DNA of 61,735 nt from Patescibacteria group bacterium (GTDB lineage: Bacteria > Patescibacteriota > Patescibacteriia > UBA2196), in assembly GCA_036845805.1 (NCBI GenBank), contig DAIUDD010000001.1, forward strand, positions 169,594 to 231,328, written 5' to 3'. Shown here in pieces: positions 13,179 through 56,960 of the stretch (positions are counted from its first letter, which is position 1; each line of letters starts with the position of its first letter). The notes beneath the pieces are model-generated. The model saw only the letters and a program-made list of their open reading frames with translations. It was not told the DNA's origin and did no database searches. Position numbers and translations under genes: made by a program.

Positions 13179-13283
13179 AAAAATTAATATTAATCTTCAT
13201 AATTAATAAATTAAGTTTATCACCATAATTAAATAACAAATTAAAAACCCGCTCCATCAGTTAAGCGGGTTTTTAAAAAATAG

Positions 13284-24291: not shown

Positions 24292-26343
24292 TTAATTATT
24301 TTCCCAATCAAACCGATAAATTTTCTTTCCGTCAGTAAAACAAACAGCGTTTACCATTATGCCGATACTCTTAGCTTGTCTCAAGTTTTCATTAATAAAC
24401 TGTTTTTGTATGTTGCCATTTTTATCTGATACAATCAGCCGTTGATTATCAGCGTCTAATATATAAATTAAGGAAATATCACTATTGGTTTCGATTAAAA
24501 TATTTTTTCCTAACGGTTTATCCAATTTTAATAACTGAAAATTTTCACTTTTTCCCTTAAATAATTTTATAACTTCTCCCTCTTTCGCTAACCAAATATT
24601 ACCATCAATGGCCATATCCTTAACTCCCAATAATATTTCTTTTTTGACTTCGTACCAACTTACCACTTCTGGAGCATCGCCCCAAGGGTTGTTAACCTTA
24701 ACTAAAAATGGCTTATTATTATCTAGGGCATAAATTCTATCATTATAAACGATGAATTTAGTAGCCGTGCCATTCAAAACCACATTAATTTTTTTAAACT
24801 CCCCCAAAATATTTCTCAACCAAAAATTATTATCTTGATCCTGACAAACAAATTGGCTTTTTTGATCAAAACCACAAATATTTATTTTGTCTTGTCGCCA
24901 AATTTCTTTTGTTGCATTATCAACTACCTGATACATTACGCCCAGATTAGTTAAAGCGTAAATATTATCCTTATCAATCATTATCTGATTAACCTGTTGT
25001 TCACCGGTTAAAAATAAATCTATTTCATTTTCTAATCCAATTTGATAAATATTATTAATTTTGTTCCACAAATTTAATACCTCAATTTGTTTTTTTTCTA
25101 ATTCCATTCGCCATTCTTCTGGCGTCTTAGTGGTTAAATTATTGCTTATCAATTCTTTGGCTACTGTCAAAAACTCCGTAGCCTTTTCTTTATCATTATA
25201 AATTAAAGCTGCTTCTGCTGCCGTTTTATTATCAGCCACCTCTCTAAAAATTTGCTGATAAAAATCAGACACTTTTACCTTATCTTGGTGCCATCTTAAA
25301 TATGCTACGCTACCGCCAATAGCTATAATTAAAACAATAATCACTATTAACAATAATTGACGGTTCTTAATCGAATTTGTTATTGTCTTTCCAATTAGGC
25401 CCCAAAAATTGGTAATTAAATTTTTAATTTTTTTAAAAATCTTAGCCGTATCTTTTTTTTCTTTTATTTGTGGTAATTTTAAATTTTTTGTCTCTTTTTT
25501 ATCGTCCTTGCGCCGATGTCGCCAAAAAAATAATAATCGTACAATTTTTTGAATATTAGGCCAAACAGATGCTGTCAGCGTTCTGCCCGTTCTTTTTTCC
25601 AAATTATCCAGCTGCTGCATTGATTCCCGTGAACCAAACCATTCTTCCAAATATTTACGGTTATCAACTTTGTTTTTTTCAATTTCTAATTCTACCCCAG
25701 AAGCTTTTAAAATAATACCGTTAATTAACGGCACATGTGCGCTTTCTTGTAGCAGGTTTTTAAAATGTTCGCTCGCCTGATCCGCATTTAATTTACTAAG
25801 CACTTCTCTTATTTTTTCCAAAGAAAAAAAATCAAACAAATTGTAATTAGCAAAAATAATTGCGTCTCCCGGTAAAATTTCTCCGCTAGTAATTTGCGTT
25901 AAGATTTTATCCTCTAAAGAAAACTGATTAGCTGCTAAAATAGAATTAATTTTTTTATTTCTCACTAAATAACCAGAGAAATGCCCGCTATTACTAAAAA
26001 CCAAAACATCATCAGCAATCACTCCCACCAAAATATTTACTTTCTGCAGCCACAAAGCTGGCTTATTAAAAAAATCAAACCAAGCTTGATTAATTTGCTG
26101 GCAAACCGTCTCTAAGGAACTTTCCACATTAGGCACTGGCGAGGCATAATAAGTTTTTTCTGCCCAATCAATAAATTCTTTAATTTTTTCTTTTAATCCT
26201 TTCTCCCGCGATTCAACGCTAATCATTATAAAAAAATGACCCAGGCCGGATTCTTCTGATTCTTCGTTATTCGCCACAAAAATCTCCGTTGTTTGTGACG
26301 GTTTAATTGGTTCTAAAAAAATTTTTGCTATATTTTCCACCAT
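24292..26343 (-). CDS. Single-pass membrane protein: degenerate PP2C-like N-domain, TM, beta-propeller-like C-domain
   Basis: PP2C-like strand pattern near SNSGHFSGYLVR and GDAIIFAN; one TM; DMAIDGNIW NHL-like unit; start moved to ATG 26343. Confidence 0.55.
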   Translation of the reverse strand: MVENIAKIFLEPIKPSQTTEIFVANNEESEESGLGHFFIMISVESREKGLKEKIKEFIDWAEKTYYASPVPNVESSLETVCQQINQAWFDFFNKPALWLQKVNILVGVIADDVLVFSNSGHFSGYLVRNKKINSILAANQFSLEDKILTQITSGEILPGDAIIFANYNLFDFFSLEKIREVLSKLNADQASEHFKNLLQESAHVPLINGIILKASGVELEIEKNKVDNRKYLEEWFGSRESMQQLDNLEKRTGRTLTASVWPNIQKIVRLLFFWRHRRKDDKKETKNLKLPQIKEKKDTAKIFKKIKNLITNFWGLIGKTITNSIKNRQLLLIVIIVLIIAIGGSVAYLRWHQDKVKVSDFYQQIFREVADNKTAAEAALIYNDKEKATEFLTVAKELISNNLTTKTPEEWRMELEKKQIEVLNLWNKINNIYQIGLENEIDLFLTGEQQVNQIMIDKDNIYALTNLGVMYQVVDNATKEIWRQDKINICGFDQKSQFVCQDQDNNFWLRNILGEFKKINVVLNGTATKFIVYNDRIYALDNNKPFLVKVNNPWGDAPEVVSWYEVKKEILLGVKDMAIDGNIWLAKEGEVIKLFKGKSENFQLLKLDKPLGKNILIETNSDISLIYILDADNQRLIVSDKNGNIQKQFINENLRQAKSIGIMVNAVCFTDGKKIYRFDWENN

Positions 26344-26463
26344 AGATATTAACCTTTTTATTATATCAATATTCATCAGCTCTGCCAAATTTTGACAAAC
26401 CATTAAAAGCTCTTTATAATTAAACTGTGGAAAAATATTTAAATCAAAAAATAAAAATAAAAT

Positions 26464-27276
26464 ATGAATCAAAATCAATTAATTGAGCTCAAACAATATA
26501 TTGAAACCGCCGAAATCGCCATTAATCAAGCCAAAGACATGATTGATTTGTTGGGCGGTAATGAAAAAAATCTTAACAAAATCGCCAAAAAAAGAGCCCG
26601 TGCTCTTACCCCGCTTTCAGAAGATAATGATACTAAAAGCATTGAAGGTGTTTTCAACGGCCAACACATGATTGGCACTGATGGCAAAGAATATAGCATT
26701 CCGGCTAATTATGCCTCCAAGTCAAAATTGGTCGCTGGTGATCAGATGAAATTGACCATCCAGCCAGACGGTACTTTTATTTACAAACAAACAAAGCCCA
26801 TTGAACAAGAACGCTTAACCGGGACTATTATTACCACTGAAGATGGTTATGCTGTTATTTCGGGCGATGGTCGAAAATTTAATGTCTTAACTGCTTCTAT
26901 TACCTATTTTAAAGGCCAGCCAGGCGACACGGCAGTCATTTTGGTGCCAGTTGATTATCCTTCTCTCTGGGCTGCTGTAGAAAATGTAATAAAAAAAGTT
27001 AATAACGAATCAGAAACCAATCTTACCCAACCAACTCTTGAAGCTCCACCAGAAGAAATGTTGCCACCAGTTAAAACTAACCTTCTGGAAACCGAAGAAC
27101 ACGAAGAATTGCCCTCGGGCGAATTAAAAAATAATCCGTCACCAACTTTTGAAAATTTTACTAATGATCAATCTCTTTCTACTCCTGATCATAATCAAAA
27201 AATAACAGCCCCAAAAATCAATGACTCCGCTTCCAATGAATTAGATATTGTTTCTGATGATTTGGAAGATTTATAA
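26464..27276 (+). CDS. Hypothetical protein with acidic low-complexity tail
   Basis: 270 aa ORF; IEGVFNGQHMIG..YASKSKLV.GD core resembles a CPR-conserved protein (from recall). Confidence 0.7.
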   Translation: MNQNQLIELKQYIETAEIAINQAKDMIDLLGGNEKNLNKIAKKRARALTPLSEDNDTKSIEGVFNGQHMIGTDGKEYSIPANYASKSKLVAGDQMKLTIQPDGTFIYKQTKPIEQERLTGTIITTEDGYAVISGDGRKFNVLTASITYFKGQPGDTAVILVPVDYPSLWAAVENVIKKVNNESETNLTQPTLEAPPEEMLPPVKTNLLETEEHEELPSGELKNNPSPTFENFTNDQSLSTPDHNQKITAPKINDSASNELDIVSDDLEDL

Positions 27277-48513: not shown

Positions 48514-48588
48514 GCGGGTATCGTATAATGGCTATTATGTATCCTTCCCAAGGATAAAATACGGGTCCGATTCCCGTTACCCGCTCCA
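48514..48588 (+). tRNA. tRNA-Gly(CCC)
   Basis: GCGGGTA/TACCCGC acceptor, TATCC-TTCCCAA-GGATA arm, encoded CCA; T-loop TCCGATT is non-canonical. Confidence 0.9.
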
Positions 48589-48930: not shown

Positions 48931-49199
48931 GCCACCTTAGCTCCGCCGCATTTTGCGGGGCAAGCAACTGGCCCGCCCGCAACGCCTCGCAAGCTCGGCT
49001 TGCGTGGCAGGCGAGTAGCCTCTGGCCCTACGGGCCATATGCTAGGGAGGGAGCAACGGTATCGCCCGCCTGCCAAAGCCATCTTAGCTCAGCTGGTAGA
49101 GCAACGCATTCGTAACGCGTAGGTCGTCGGTTCAAATCCGACAGATGGCTCTGGCGGGCAGGTAAACCAAGGTTCCCGGTTCAAGCCCGGGAGGTGGCT
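48931..49199 (+). pseudogene. Split outer tRNA-Thr enclosing hairpins and a complete tRNA
   Basis: GCCACCT/AGGTGGC acceptor, GCTC/GAGC D stem, CCCGG-TTCAAGC-CCGGG T arm; inserts 48944-49050 and 49065-49162. Confidence 0.7.
49078..49150 (+). tRNA. tRNA-Thr(CGT), intact, nested
   Basis: Full cloverleaf; ACGCA-TTCGTAA-CGCGT anticodon arm; GTCGG-TTCAAAT-CCGAC T arm. Confidence 0.93.
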
Positions 49200-54798: not shown

Positions 54799-54927
54799 TT
54801 AAAAATAATCAAGAAACAAGATACAATTTCCAAATAAATTTCAAACCTCAAATTTCAATTACTAAATTTTTTGGTTATTGATTATTGTTTGGAAATTGGA
54901 ATTTGTATCTTGGAAATTTATTACTTT

Positions 54928-55530
54928 ATGTCTCATCCCAAAACAGAACGCACCTTAGTTTTAATCAAACCCGATGGTGTGCAGCGCTCGCTCATTGGTG
55001 AAATAATTCACCGCTTAGAAAGAACTGGCCTTAAACTGGTGGCTGCTAAATTTATTATGGCCACCAAAGAGCAGGGCTATGAACATTATAAAAAAGAAGA
55101 AGATTGGCTCGAAGAAAAAGGCGCCAAAAGAATTACCCAAAGGCAAGCTGAAGGTAAACCAATTGAAAAATCAGCCCGTGAATATGGCCTCGATATTGTT
55201 AATGCTAATGTCAGTTTTATTACTGCTGGTCCAATTGTGCCGATGATCTGGGAAGGAAATAAAGCGGTGGGTATTATTAAAAAAATTGTCGGCGGCACCG
55301 AACCTTTAACTTCCGACGTCGGCACAATCAGGGGCGATTTAACTATGGATTCTTATGATATTTCGAATTTAGACGAACGTTGCGTCCGTAATCTTATTCA
55401 TTGCACCGATGATCCAAAAGAAGCCGCGCGTGAAATAGCGATTTGGTTTAAACCAGAAGAAATTTTAAATTATCGTCTTCTTAATGAAGCTATTCTCTAT
55501 GATATTAATCTAGATGGCATTAAAGAATAA
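54928..55530 (+). CDS. ndk: Nucleoside diphosphate kinase (long form)
   Basis: ERTLVLIKPDGVQR, GTIRGD, RNLIHCTD; start at MSHPK. Confidence 0.93.
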   Translation: MSHPKTERTLVLIKPDGVQRSLIGEIIHRLERTGLKLVAAKFIMATKEQGYEHYKKEEDWLEEKGAKRITQRQAEGKPIEKSAREYGLDIVNANVSFITAGPIVPMIWEGNKAVGIIKKIVGGTEPLTSDVGTIRGDLTMDSYDISNLDERCVRNLIHCTDDPKEAAREIAIWFKPEEILNYRLLNEAILYDINLDGIKE

Positions 55531-55630
55531 TTTCTTTCTCCTTAATTTTAATCTCTTTTTTTTCTTGACACTTTGACACCGGACACTCTGACACTTATTT
55601 TGACCGCTCTCCCTAAAACTGTTATTATAA

Positions 55631-55866
55631 AAGCGCCTCGCAGAAACCATTTTCCTCAATCATTTCTACAACCATTTCTCGTTGGAAAACATATTTTGCC
55701 GCTCTTCTGGTTAGACCAGGGAATGCCAATGAGTTTTCCCGCGATCATTATCACGGCCTTTGGTTTGCCCGGACTCGGATTTACTAAGTCTGCGGCAAAA
55801 CACTGGCCAGATCCGTTTCTTAAACGGAATTGATTGTTGTGATTTTGTCATCCTGCGGGGTGTTTT
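55631..55866 (+). ncRNA. Candidate ~235-nt rod-like structured RNA (6S-like?)
   Basis: TTGACC-17-TATTAT promoter; 5'/3' closing stem; inner TTTTGCCGC/GCGGCAAAA stem. Confidence 0.35.
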
Positions 55867-55876
55867 AATTATTTAT

Positions 55877-56163
55877 CGGGGTGTCGTATACCGGTAGTAC
55901 GCGTCCATGGGGGTTGAAGCGATTAGCTTCAACGGGCGAGGAGGTTTGCCTGTGGCAAACCACCACAAGCCCAGGCTTTTATTTTTTATTTCGGGCTATA
56001 GCGCAGTTGGCTAGCGCGCATGCATGGGGTGCATGAGGTCGGCAGTTCAAATCTGCCTAGCCCGAAAGAAAAAATAAAAGATGTAGACGGGGTTCACCCT
56101 GCACCATAAAGGTGCATGGTAGCCCTAAACCTTTATGGTTTAGGACAATTCACCGCACCCCGA
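55877..56163 (+). pseudogene. Split outer tRNA-Pro enclosing hairpins and a complete tRNA
   Basis: CGGGGTG/CACCCCG acceptor, GTAT/GTAC D stem, CGTCC-ATGGGG; inserts in anticodon and T loops. Confidence 0.7.
55992..56065 (+). tRNA. tRNA-Pro(GGG), intact, nested
   Basis: Full cloverleaf; CATGC-ATGGGGT-GCATG arm; GGCAG-TTCAAAT-CTGCC T arm. Confidence 0.93.
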
Positions 56164-56179
56164 TAAAAGTGTAGAATGA

Positions 56180-56346
56180 GGGTGCATGAGGGTTTAAAAG
56201 ACACACTGTGTCTTTTAAACCAGTTCAAATCCGGCTACCCCGATAATTAAGACATTAAAATTATAGATCGGGTTCACCTTGCACCATAAAGGTGCAAGGT
56301 AGTCCTAAACCTTTATGGTTTAGGGCAATTCCCCGCACCCCGACCA
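56180..56346 (+). repeat. Two further tRNA-Pro 3'-half fragments with hairpin inserts
   Basis: TTCAAATCCGGCTACCCCGA ending 56243; near copy of 56084-56163 at 56264-56346 ending ACCA. Confidence 0.7.
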
Positions 56347-56384
56347 ACTGAAAGAAAACAAACTTATGGTTTGTACTACTTATT

Positions 56385-56960
56385 ATGCCACCTAATCTAA
56401 TCTGCCAAGATAAAACCGACGAAGACTTGGTTTCCTTGACACTTAAAAATAATGATTACTTTTCTTGTCTGATGAGCCGCTATGAACAGCGACTTTTGTT
56501 TTATATTATCCGGCTCTCCGGTTTTAAAAAAGATGAAGCGGAAGATGTTCTGCAGGAAACATTTATCAAAACTTTCTATCATTTAAGTGATTTTGACAAA
56601 AAACTTAAATTTTCTTCCTGGCTTTATCGAATTACCCATAACGAAACCATTAATGCATTGAAAAAAAAGAAAAGTAAAATAATTATTAACTTAACAACCG
56701 AAGATTGGCAAAACATTGCCACTAAAAACAATCTCAAAGAAGAAATCGCGGCAAAAATTAATCAAGAAAAAATTAAACAATTAATTAACCACCTGGAACC
56801 AAAATATCAAGAAGTTATAATTTTAAAATTTTTAGAAGATTATAGTTATGAAGAAATTTCAGATATTTTGCAAAAACCAACTGGCACTATTGCGACCCTG
56901 CTTAATCGCGCTAAAAAAAAATTAAAACAAGAATTTATAAAAATTAATTTTACCTATTAA
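56385..56960 (+). CDS. ECF RNA polymerase sigma-70 factor
   Basis: AEDVLQETF, KFSSWLYRITHN, YSYEEISDIL..GTIATLLNRAKKKL. Confidence 0.93.
   Translation: MPPNLICQDKTDEDLVSLTLKNNDYFSCLMSRYEQRLLFYIIRLSGFKKDEAEDVLQETFIKTFYHLSDFDKKLKFSSWLYRITHNETINALKKKKSKIIINLTTEDWQNIATKNNLKEEIAAKINQEKIKQLINHLEPKYQEVIILKFLEDYSYEEISDILQKPTGTIATLLNRAKKKLKQEFIKINFTY

Follow-up and report, generated by a model that had tools for sequence, protein, structure and literature searches.

In the genome of an uncultured, ultra-small Patescibacteria group bacterium, a transfer RNA (tRNA) gene for proline carries a second, complete tRNA gene for proline inside it. The two lie in a stretch of 61,735 nucleotides (nt) of assembly GCA_036845805.1 (contig DAIUDD010000001.1, positions 169,594 to 231,328 of the forward strand), which as a whole we call the window, and they sit in an 850-nt non-coding gap between ndk (54871-55530) and a sigma factor gene (56385-56960). 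We refer to the arrangement as the Pro nest (Table 1). In other words, what looks like one interrupted gene is also the frame around another, and the question is what, if anything, the frame still does. A preliminary description, made from the letters alone, had claimed a split tRNA-Pro with an intact tRNA-Pro(GGG) lodged in its anticodon loop and had spelled out the outer gene. Its strings all lie where it had put them (CGGGGTG TC GTAT ACCGGTA GTAC G CGTCC ATGGGG at 55877-55912, AGATG TAGA CGGGG TTC at 56079-56095, and AATT CACCG CACCCCG A at 56147-56163), and the claim itself is borne out by intact homologues, to which we return below.

The 5' part of the outer gene supplies the acceptor 5' strand, the D arm, the 5' strand of the anticodon stem, and the loop AUGGGG. 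The gene breaks off after G37, resumes at G40/A41, and breaks again in the T-loop between C56 and A57; nucleotides 38-39 are absent at the first junction. Of the two 3' pieces, one holds ATG (a remnant of positions 41-43), the variable loop TAGA, CGGGG as the T-stem 5' strand, and TTC as T-loop positions 54-56; in the other, AATT is T-loop 57-60, CACCG is the T-stem 3' strand with one G.A mismatch (4/5 pairs), and CACCCCG is the acceptor 3' strand. The second insert that had been reported between these pieces is present, with two hairpins. The outer acceptor stem pairs 7/7 and is prolonged to a perfect 12-bp repeat, TTTATCGGGGTG / CACCCCGATAAA. Within the core that follows the first hairpin (hp1) lies a second one (hp2, GGAGGTTTGCC TGT GGCAAACCACC, with an A.A mismatch), and GGGCG at 55934-55938 offers an alternative, nearer partner to close the outer anticodon stem. 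Another 12-bp inverted repeat, described earlier around the inner gene, is real and proves to be longer: at 23 nt and 96% complementarity (55976-55998 / 56058-56080), it takes in the inner acceptor stem and lengthens that stem by 16 bp.

Downstream, the locus repeats part of itself. A tandem duplication of about 180 nt (56027-56163 vs. 56180-56343) has copied the 3' half of the inner tRNA, the right arm of the helix, and the outer 3' part together with its pair of T-loop hairpins. In the second copy, hairpin 1 pairs perfectly and hairpin 2 pairs fully with one G.U; in the first copy, each hairpin has one mismatch. The copied tRNA fragment is broken by a perfect 31-nt palindrome (56191-56221, GGTTTAAAAGACACA C TGTGTCTTTTAAACC) of the A-tract/stem/T-tract type that is found at gene ends in the window, and this palindrome may act as a terminator. 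The duplication goes beyond the preliminary description, as do GGGCG and an extra CGGGGTG upstream, the possible partner of which (56333-56339) is the 3' end of the second 3'-part copy.

Table 1. Features of the Pro nest and of the related Thr nest in the window (L014, L057, and L035 are related loci discussed in the text)
Feature	Position	Strand	Remarks
Promoter-like site TTGTCA-16 nt-AATTAT	55845-55872	+	Consensus scan only, 9/12 positions match
Extra CGGGGTG (copy of outer acceptor 5' strand)	55856-55862	+	Pairing possible with 56333-56339
Outer tRNA-Pro(GGG), 5' part, positions 1-37	55877-55912	+	33/34 comparable nt identical in L014
Hairpin hp1, GTTGAAGC GATTA GCTTCAAC, directly after G37	55913-55933	+	Hairpin at the same position, with different stems, in L014, L057, L035
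Conserved core, GGGC GA-hp2-ACAA GCCC AGG	55934-55975	+	39/42 nt identical in L014
Bridging helix, left arm CTTTTATTTTTTATTT, prolongs inner acceptor stem	55976-55991	+	Inverted repeat
Inner complete tRNA-Pro(GGG)	55992-56065	+	Discriminator A, no encoded CCA; sole conventional tRNA gene in the gap
Bridging helix, right arm AAGAAAAAATAAAAG	56066-56080	+	Inverted repeat
Outer 3' part a	56081-56095	+	14/15 nt identical in L014; matches intact homologues (...GGATG TAGA CCGGG TTC...)
T-loop insert, 51 nt, hairpins 56096-56120 and 56121-56146	56096-56146	+	
Outer 3' part b	56147-56163	+	AATT, CACCG, CACCCCG, A73
Partial inner-type tRNA copy, anticodon to 3' end	56180-56243	+	Repeats
Second copy of outer 3' part with both T-loop hairpins	56264-56343	+	Right half of the duplication; 86% identity with copy 1 across 95 nt
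Outer tRNA-Thr(CGU), D-loop insert, GC-rich, 106 nt	48944-49049		
Thr helix, 10 bp	49065-49074 / 49153-49162		
Inner tRNA-Thr(CGU), between outer G35 and U36	49078-49150		Outer T arm intact

Could such a locus be a fault of assembly? Six separate ENA/JGI assemblies (L001, L002, L005, L006, L007, and L008; loci fetched for comparison carry such handles throughout) match window positions 55400-56500 at 99.9-100%, and the one difference among them is a single-nucleotide polymorphism at 55495, in ndk, outside the nest. Because six separate assemblies agree, misassembly, which had been named at the outset as what would undo the claim, is excluded. The nest region as a whole folds with z = -11.2 against shuffled sequences. 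We regard the Pro tRNA-in-tRNA locus as confirmed: it is real, reproducible, and evolutionarily retained.

With the artefact goes a related idea, that the nest is attachment-site (att) debris of an integrative element that targeted a tRNA gene. Integrative elements classically enter tRNA genes at the anticodon loop or the T-loop, and partial 3' copies do stand here in tandem. There is also a precedent in Caldiarchaeum, where a tRNA 5' fragment, a mobile element, and a tRNA follow each other (PMC3293823). Nevertheless, among the window's open reading frames (ORFs) of at least 110 aa, scanned with Pfam, no recombinase, integrase, transposase, or RNA-repair gene was found; instead of an element body, the fragments enclose 80-170 nt of structured, RNA-like sequence; the tandem 3' copies are a local 180-nt duplication; and a complete gene stands between a single 5' part and a single 3' part, where an att scar would show one half of the tRNA as a direct repeat. 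We find this explanation (debris or artefact) hardly credible, and it is already largely refuted.

The inner gene is a canonical tRNA by its score of 62.2 bits against a gathering score of 29 for Rfam RF00005, and ARAGORN calls it as tRNA-Pro(ggg) at 55991-56066. It has a GCGC D stem and a 5-nt variable loop and differs in type from the outer gene, as had been claimed from the two D arms (GTAT/GTAC in the outer, GCGC/GCGC in the inner). Where the outer gene came from can be read from a 20-mer of its sequence, GGTAGTACGCGTCCATGGGG, which was scanned against JGI metagenome contigs and matched at least 119 stretches. Among the matches listed, 115 of 122 fall inside uninterrupted tRNA-Pro(GGG) genes called by ARAGORN, and 67 distinct tRNA sequences stand behind those 115 intact genes. 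Their common pattern is CGGGCTG TA GTAT ACCGGTA GTAC G CGTCC ATGGGGT GGATG TAGA CCGGG TTCGATT CCCGG CAGCCCG A, and the outer 3' pieces are collinear with it (...ATG TAGA CNGGG TTC / AATT ... CACCCCGA). To judge from this homology, which goes beyond chance, the outer pieces derive from a tRNA-Pro(GGG) type that is widespread in the Candidate Phyla Radiation (CPR).

Diverged relatives say more about how the nest has fared. The closest relatives of the sigma factor were retrieved together with their flanks, and one of them, L014, carries a Pro nest at the same locus; its sigma factor is 64% identical, and the genes downstream (anti-sigma, L28, M50, S12, S7) follow in the same order as in the window. 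The L014 nest has the outer 5' part with an extra hairpin in the D-loop, a hairpin at 37/38, an inner tRNA of the same type, and the same 3' pieces. At 4-fold degenerate sites in six shared genes, the two lineages are 38% identical, which is saturation. Set against that figure, identity reaches 92% and 100% in the outer 5' blocks, 93% and 84% in the outer 3' blocks, and 93% in the core (in both, G(U/G)GCGAGGAGG-hairpin-CACC(A/G)CAAGCCCAGG). Other parts have changed in letters and kept their pairing: hp1 is 52% identical, with four stem base pairs that differ and all 8 pairs kept, and the bridging helix (16 bp in the window, 10 bp in L014) is unrelated in sequence and still pairs, which would imply long divergence under constraint. 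The T-loop inserts are unrelated, L014 having a single hairpin, CCTGCCTGCCGGCAGGCAGG, at the same T-loop position; the window's own T-loop hairpin sequences are confined to this locus, in the window as well as among the fetched loci. The inner tRNA matches in 69/74 nt (93%) with compensatory changes in the T stem, and these, along with its 62 bits, indicate that the inner gene is functional. The outer gene in L014 has a C.U mismatch in its anticodon stem and an irregular T stem.

Two properties of the nest seem to follow. It is probably old, as may be argued (though not proved) from the shared locus, junction, and T-loop site and from a bridging helix that diverged and yet pairs. Moreover, what surrounds the inner gene, which we call the shell, appears to be constrained, because its exon-like blocks (84-100%) and core (93%) stand so far above the 38% at 4-fold sites and the 52% of hp1. 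In a third lineage (L057/L103), the 5' part, hp1, and the core stand ahead of a complete tRNA-Pro(GGG) that belongs to the outer type, and there is no outer 3' part. In L057, three pairs of hp2 have changed in a compensatory way and the A.A mismatch is kept; that hp1 and hp2 covary suggests constraint on the shell as well. When about 630 kb of related DNA was scanned with a covariance model of hp1 plus core, the lineages of the window, L014, and L057 alone gave matches. No further Pro nests turned up by synteny in the GTDB sigma-factor relatives L009-L012, in the P0005, P0002, P0003, and P0007 contigs, or among the methyltransferase relatives L142-L146, and the core and T-loop hairpin had zero matches in viral contigs. 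A count by eye of G.U against A.C pairs, bearing on RNA-level against DNA-level palindromes, offered too few informative pairs. A small ORF in the core (55940-56014; GGAGG...GTG, about 20 codons) was considered and set aside; its start is kept in L014 and absent in L057, and the frame, which runs into the inner tRNA, is probably not a gene.

The third lineage invites another thought: that the outer 5' part, hp1, and core form a cis-regulatory leader, a mimic of the tRNA-Pro anticodon arm or an attenuator, for the downstream tRNA-Pro(GGG), the 3' part being incidental. In three lineages, the same unit (5' part, hairpin at 37/38, GGGCGAGGAG-hp2-CACCACAAGCCCAGG, and a U-run) does precede a complete tRNA-Pro(GGG), with or without an outer 3' part (L057 has none); its conservation extends to loop nucleotides, and CCCA in the core complements UGGG in the anticodon loop, with the U-run following. 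Such a leader would have no precedent and belongs to no Rfam family (the non-tRNA core, 55913-55975, gave nothing meaningful at E up to 10), and only three sequences speak for it. In the window and L014, the bridging helix takes this U-run as one of its arms, and the Thr and Gly nests, described below, have the same overall architecture without the core. We rate a leader as very unlikely.

Can the outer tRNA be put back together? The preliminary description had expected that excising its two inserts would leave a sequence that scores as a tRNA. With its boundaries that fails: ARAGORN called 0 of 121 constructs (the exact boundaries and 120 neighbouring variants), the exact construct giving no call at default and a call of undetermined type only at -ps80. 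With a different parse into three inserts the expectation holds, and 55877-55912 + C + GGGCG + TAGACGGGGTTC + AATTCACCGCACCCCGA is called as tRNA-Pro(GGG) at ARAGORN default. Here, C55933 and GGGCG (55934-55938) are taken as positions 38-43, pairing with CGTCC; the insert in the anticodon loop is then only the 20-nt hairpin body 55913-55932, and the inner tRNA falls in the variable region. This parse shows a possible fold, not a product made. The L014 outer gene is called under the same parse only at a relaxed threshold, the outer Thr genes of the window and L148 and the outer Pro(UGG) gene of L036 are called after removal of their inserts, and ARAGORN's intron mode (-io) returned mostly chimeras of adjacent tRNAs.

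If such products are made, then the outer gene is a genuine interrupted tRNA gene, the three inserts of which would be spliced out by an undescribed bacterial route to give a second functional tRNA-Pro(GGG). We think this unlikely. The same low standing goes to its broader form, in which a previously unknown class of CPR tRNA intervening sequences (mobile, flanked by helices, some with a whole tRNA on board) would home to set positions in anticodon-, D-, and T-loops and be removed from RNA by a route that is neither group I nor bulge-helix-bulge (BHB), one locus yielding two mature tRNAs. Splicing would account for the default ARAGORN calls just listed; for exon-like blocks that are conserved while the inserts are variable and confined to loops; for a bridging helix that unites the halves and is kept in structure, not in sequence, as in archaeal split or intron-bearing tRNAs; for the perfect outer UGG gene around a CGG gene in L036; and for the outer Thr gene of L148, which is 1 nt off the intact gene of a sister despite three inserts.

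What splicing lacks is a signal. There is no Rfam Intron_gpI match at the gathering threshold or at E up to 10, and no Rfam family or ribozyme in the Pro and Thr regions at E up to 10; the insert without the inner tRNA is only about 90 nt; and the last base of the 5' exon is G (ATGGGG/G) where a group I intron would have U. On inspection of the window Pro and Thr nests, L036, L014, and L148, no BHB motif was found at the junctions, where the helices leave the loop directly with internal loops of 6x0-1, 4x3, 4x7, and 3x4 nt. Nor is there an EndA- or RtcB-type gene among the scanned ORFs of the window, which covers 61.7 kb of a contig of at least 722 kb. The Pro nest fits no known kind of bacterial tRNA intron, failing the group I, BHB, and att-scar tests alike. 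Other facts weigh against splicing too: the C.U mismatch, irregular T stem, and relaxed threshold in L014; the loci L057 and L035, which have the 5' part and hp1 (L057 also the core) and no outer 3' part; the broken anticodon stem of the outer Gly gene in both L148 and L150; and a bias to nests within the same anticodon, which is unexpected if splicing is efficient. A second tRNA-Pro(GGG) would also be redundant.

The Pro nest is one case of a recurrent CPR phenomenon, that of helix-flanked inserts in tRNA loops. Besides the nest of L014, further ones, spotted by eye among the fetched loci, lie in L036, L077, L133, L113, L024, and L062; L035, L057, and L044 have a 5' copy only. In L036 (4836-5022), a tRNA-Pro(UGG) with perfect stems is split between G35 and G36 by a 15-bp helix bearing a tRNA-Pro(CGG); L077 (950-1300) holds a double or triple Pro nest; L133 has Pro(GGG) within Pro(GGG) plus a T-loop hairpin; and L113 and L024 have more Pro nests. 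The outer UGG genes of L036 and L077 would need splicing if they are sole copies in their genomes. Most nests pair the same anticodon (Pro-GGG in GGG, Thr-CGU in CGU, Gly-CCC in CCC). Nesting goes beyond such pairs because in L062 (1844-2060), a 5' part with a CAU anticodon (Met/Ile2-like) and its matching 3' acceptor strand surround a helix-flanked tRNA-Val(CAC). Inserts in the window, L014, L133, and L148 are all in loops and none in stems, and of the 252 tRNAs in the full set of loci, only nested ones have flanks that pair over 9 bp or more so as to lengthen the acceptor stem.

A Thr locus in the window (48931-49199), which the preliminary description had likened to the Pro nest, indeed has the same architecture, and it shows how such things may begin. 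Orthologues were placed by gene order (lepA, divIC, tRNAs, RlpA-like, ftsEX, tRNA-Gln). The Thr nest of L148 has its break exactly where the window has it (35/36), and the terminal helices match in 18/20 nt (CTCGCCTGCC / GGCGGGTAGG in L148, CCCGCCTGCC / GGCGGGCAGG in the window). In L150 and L152, the same tRNA-Thr gene is uninterrupted. L150 is sister to L148, with amino-acid identity of 91% and 62% identity at 4-fold sites, and L152 is the nearer relative of the window. On this four-taxon tree, the Thr nest would require two gains at one site or two precise losses. Because it is present in one sister lineage and absent from the other at one nucleotide position, the comparison points to an origin of nests by insertion of helix-flanked cassettes into tRNA loops. 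In L147, a closer relative, the outer Thr 3' part is apparently absent.

A Gly nest adds a second time scale. It is common to L148 (9503-9730) and L150 (1838-2056), and the window has the orthologue of its outer gene intact, as tRNA-Gly(CCC) at 48514-48588. The nest has a D-loop hairpin, a helix-flanked inner tRNA-Gly(CCC), and the 3' terminal helix GGCGGGCAGG. Its presence in both would place it before the L148/L150 split. The shell is 87% identical between the two, against 62% at 4-fold sites, with 28/28 nt in the T arm and variable loop; the L148 acceptor shows two C-to-U transitions that give G.U pairs, plus one C.A mismatch.

Are the shells then simply debris? It could be that a mobile cassette was inserted recently and independently in each lineage into a strongly selected resident tRNA gene, and that what remains around it is inert. 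The resident type is, after all, extremely conserved across CPR, as its 20-mer shows; the Thr nest is polymorphic between sisters; outer genes span the range from perfect (L036) to decayed (L133, L113, L024, and the Gly gene of L148); the marks of T-stem decay in the window and L014 are particular to each lineage and not shared; and L147 seems to have lost a 3' part. We nevertheless find inert debris doubtful. The window and L014 nests occupy the same place upstream of sigma, anti-sigma, L28, M50, S12, and S7, and they have in common the junction loss, the T-loop insertion point, and a rare acceptor/8-9 variant. Their bridging helices pair with unrelated sequences, and the older Gly shell changes at about one third of the divergence at 4-fold sites. 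In addition, the internal duplication, now 14% diverged, would show that the window nest is not very young.

The cassettes may have relatives outside tRNA genes. Many CPR contigs have, between their genes, GC-rich palindromes of the form CCTGCCTRCC GG YAGGCAGG (e.g., L014:3276-3295, L011:3847, L099:4418, L141:6836, and L142:4099). A similar sequence makes up the terminal helix of the Thr and Gly nests (CCCGCCTGCC ... GGCGGGCAGG), and the L014 T-loop hairpin CCTGCCTGCCGGCAGGCAGG is an "empty" version; the palindromes may be a repeat family that sometimes carries a tRNA. Separately, a hairpin CCCCGTAAA...ACGGGGCA occurs three times in L148 (9508-9540, 9756-9784, and 12648-12690), in the D-loops of the outer Gly and Thr genes and once between genes, and the Thr D-loop insert of the window begins with a ...GCGGGGCA hairpin. 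Two outer tRNAs from different organisms, one for Pro in L133 and one for Thr in L148, are split by similar T-loop hairpins (L133:9898-9913, TCCGCCAGTTGGCGGA; L148:9949-9969, TCCGCCAGATGCGGA...).

We lean, tentatively and at somewhat less than even confidence, toward a reading in which an inserted, helix-flanked cassette functionally replaced the resident gene, the remains of which were kept as a constrained, co-transcribed shell and are not re-spliced. That is, a resident CPR-type tRNA-Pro(GGG) would have been split by a structured cassette with a complete tRNA-Pro(GGG) of its own at the end of a long helix, and the inner gene would have taken over decoding, the outer gene being neither used for decoding nor rejoined. 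A single transcript of about 350 nt could start from the promoter-like site at 55845-55872 (the consensus scan gave none between 55872 and the inner tRNA), with the outer pieces forming a 115-nt leader and a trailer. Held together by the bridging helix and by the outer acceptor stem with its extension of 5 bp, they would form a tRNA-shaped shell, from which RNase P and 3' processing would free the inner tRNA. The shell would be constrained at the RNA level if the inner gene needs it for transcription, folding, and end formation, and its pairing might also keep the paralogous halves from mispairing.

Replacement draws on the pattern of anticodons and on the state of the outer gene. Nests of the same anticodon fit replacement better than splicing, since an inner copy is expected to compensate for the loss of the outer one. 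The outer gene, furthermore, does not look like a full tRNA, because positions 38-39 are lost (38-40 in L014), the T-loop is interrupted, the T stem is mismatched, and the Gly anticodon stems are broken, and because L057 and L035 do without the 3' part, as L147 apparently does for Thr.

Some matters sit uneasily with replacement and a kept shell. Co-transcription and processing are steps that we infer, and the promoter call is a weak consensus match. A pure scaffold role leaves unexplained why L014 has exactly the same D-loop CGGTA and the same AUGGGG. Insertions that happened recently and independently, into a resident gene that is itself highly conserved, could mimic the conservation between window and L014, in which case no selection on the shell is needed, and the Thr nest of L148 shows that young nests occur. 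The perfect Pro-UGG gene around Pro-CGG in L036 is hard to square with simple replacement, unless its genome has a further UGG gene. Finally, a shell can be lost, as the apparent absence of the outer Thr 3' part in L147 indicates.

The rest of the window is what one might expect of a bacterial chromosome segment: at about 34% GC, it carries housekeeping genes (lepA, ftsE/ftsX, ychF, ndk, an extracytoplasmic function sigma factor, rpsL/rpsG, mreB/C, parA/B, relA/spoT, prfA, rpsB, tsf, pgk, and eno), and the nearest relatives of its proteins are annotated as Patescibacteria/CPR. Two ORFs have no Pfam match (24292-26478 on the minus strand, 728 aa; 26464-27276 on the plus strand, 270 aa). Hairpins like the palindrome at 56191-56221 stand at 13241, 24239, 32033, and 58026, and these four are likely bidirectional terminators; similar palindromes ending in TTTAAA lie in the L014 D-loop and in L133. 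The non-coding DNA between ndk and the nest (55595-55845) folds better than shuffles (z = -3.2 on the plus strand, -4.2 on the minus strand), lacks an Rfam match, comes with two promoter-like sites (55573 and 55600), and may be another small RNA.

Why should one care about a tRNA within a tRNA? Bacterial tRNA genes are held to be structurally uniform, and here, one carries a complete second tRNA gene plus hairpins in its loops, in a layout that even a deeply diverged relative has retained and that is seen again with four or more amino-acid specificities. The outer genes escape standard tRNA finders, and CPR tRNA inventories may be wrong as a result. If the outer tRNAs are matured, then bacteria have an undescribed route of tRNA splicing, which would bear on the debate over the origin of split and intron-bearing tRNAs.

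Among known systems, the multi-intron and split tRNAs of archaea (BHB, EndA, RtcB) come close in form. They, too, have inserts in the anticodon loop (including 37/38), the D-loop, and the T-loop; a complementary helix joins the halves; and exon-like blocks are conserved and inserts variable. The CPR nests differ in having a bacterial host, simple internal loops, and an insert with a complete tRNA, and no EndA or RtcB was found in the scanned window ORFs.

Group I introns are, according to a 2014 review, the only notable structural deviation of bacterial tRNA genes (PMC4033280). Their hosts (tRNA-Leu and tRNA-fMet in cyanobacteria, tRNA-Ile and tRNA-Arg in alpha- and beta-proteobacteria) are broken beside the anticodon, as is the CPR nest, which in contrast has about 90 nt beside its inner tRNA, no ribozyme core, and G, not U, as the last exon base. 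In Caldiarchaeum subterraneum, a tRNA gene is disrupted by a mobile element (Sugahara et al. 2012; PMC3293823): a 5' fragment lies upstream of a complete tRNA of the same identity, its presence varies from one close genome to another, and an origin by insertion or recombination has been proposed, all of which recalls the CPR nest. There, however, the host is an archaeon, the intervening 1.8 kb encodes a recombinase, and the tRNA introns are of the BHB type (PMC3293823); here, the intervening DNA is 80-170 nt, structured, and protein-free, in bacteria. A full-text literature search of partial coverage found no nested or interrupted tRNA genes in CPR/Patescibacteria, and an earlier description is possible.

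Two last comparisons concern RNA within RNA. An archaeal tRNA-Trp intron encodes a box C/D guide RNA, and the processing stems of rRNA operons enclose RNAs; in both, as in the CPR nest, a functional RNA is found within intervening sequence or at the end of a long processing helix. The CPR cargo differs in being a full tRNA, with the specificity of the host gene, and the helix extends the acceptor stem of the cargo. In the engineered "tRNA scaffold," an RNA is set in the anticodon arm, and the tRNA-like ends confer processing and stability. This is just what we propose, tentatively, for the shell; there, the construct is artificial, and here, the D-loop and T-loop of the shell are interrupted as well. 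If the shell is only a scaffold, then CPR bacteria would have a natural counterpart of the engineered one, a gene replaced from the inside by its own paralogue.

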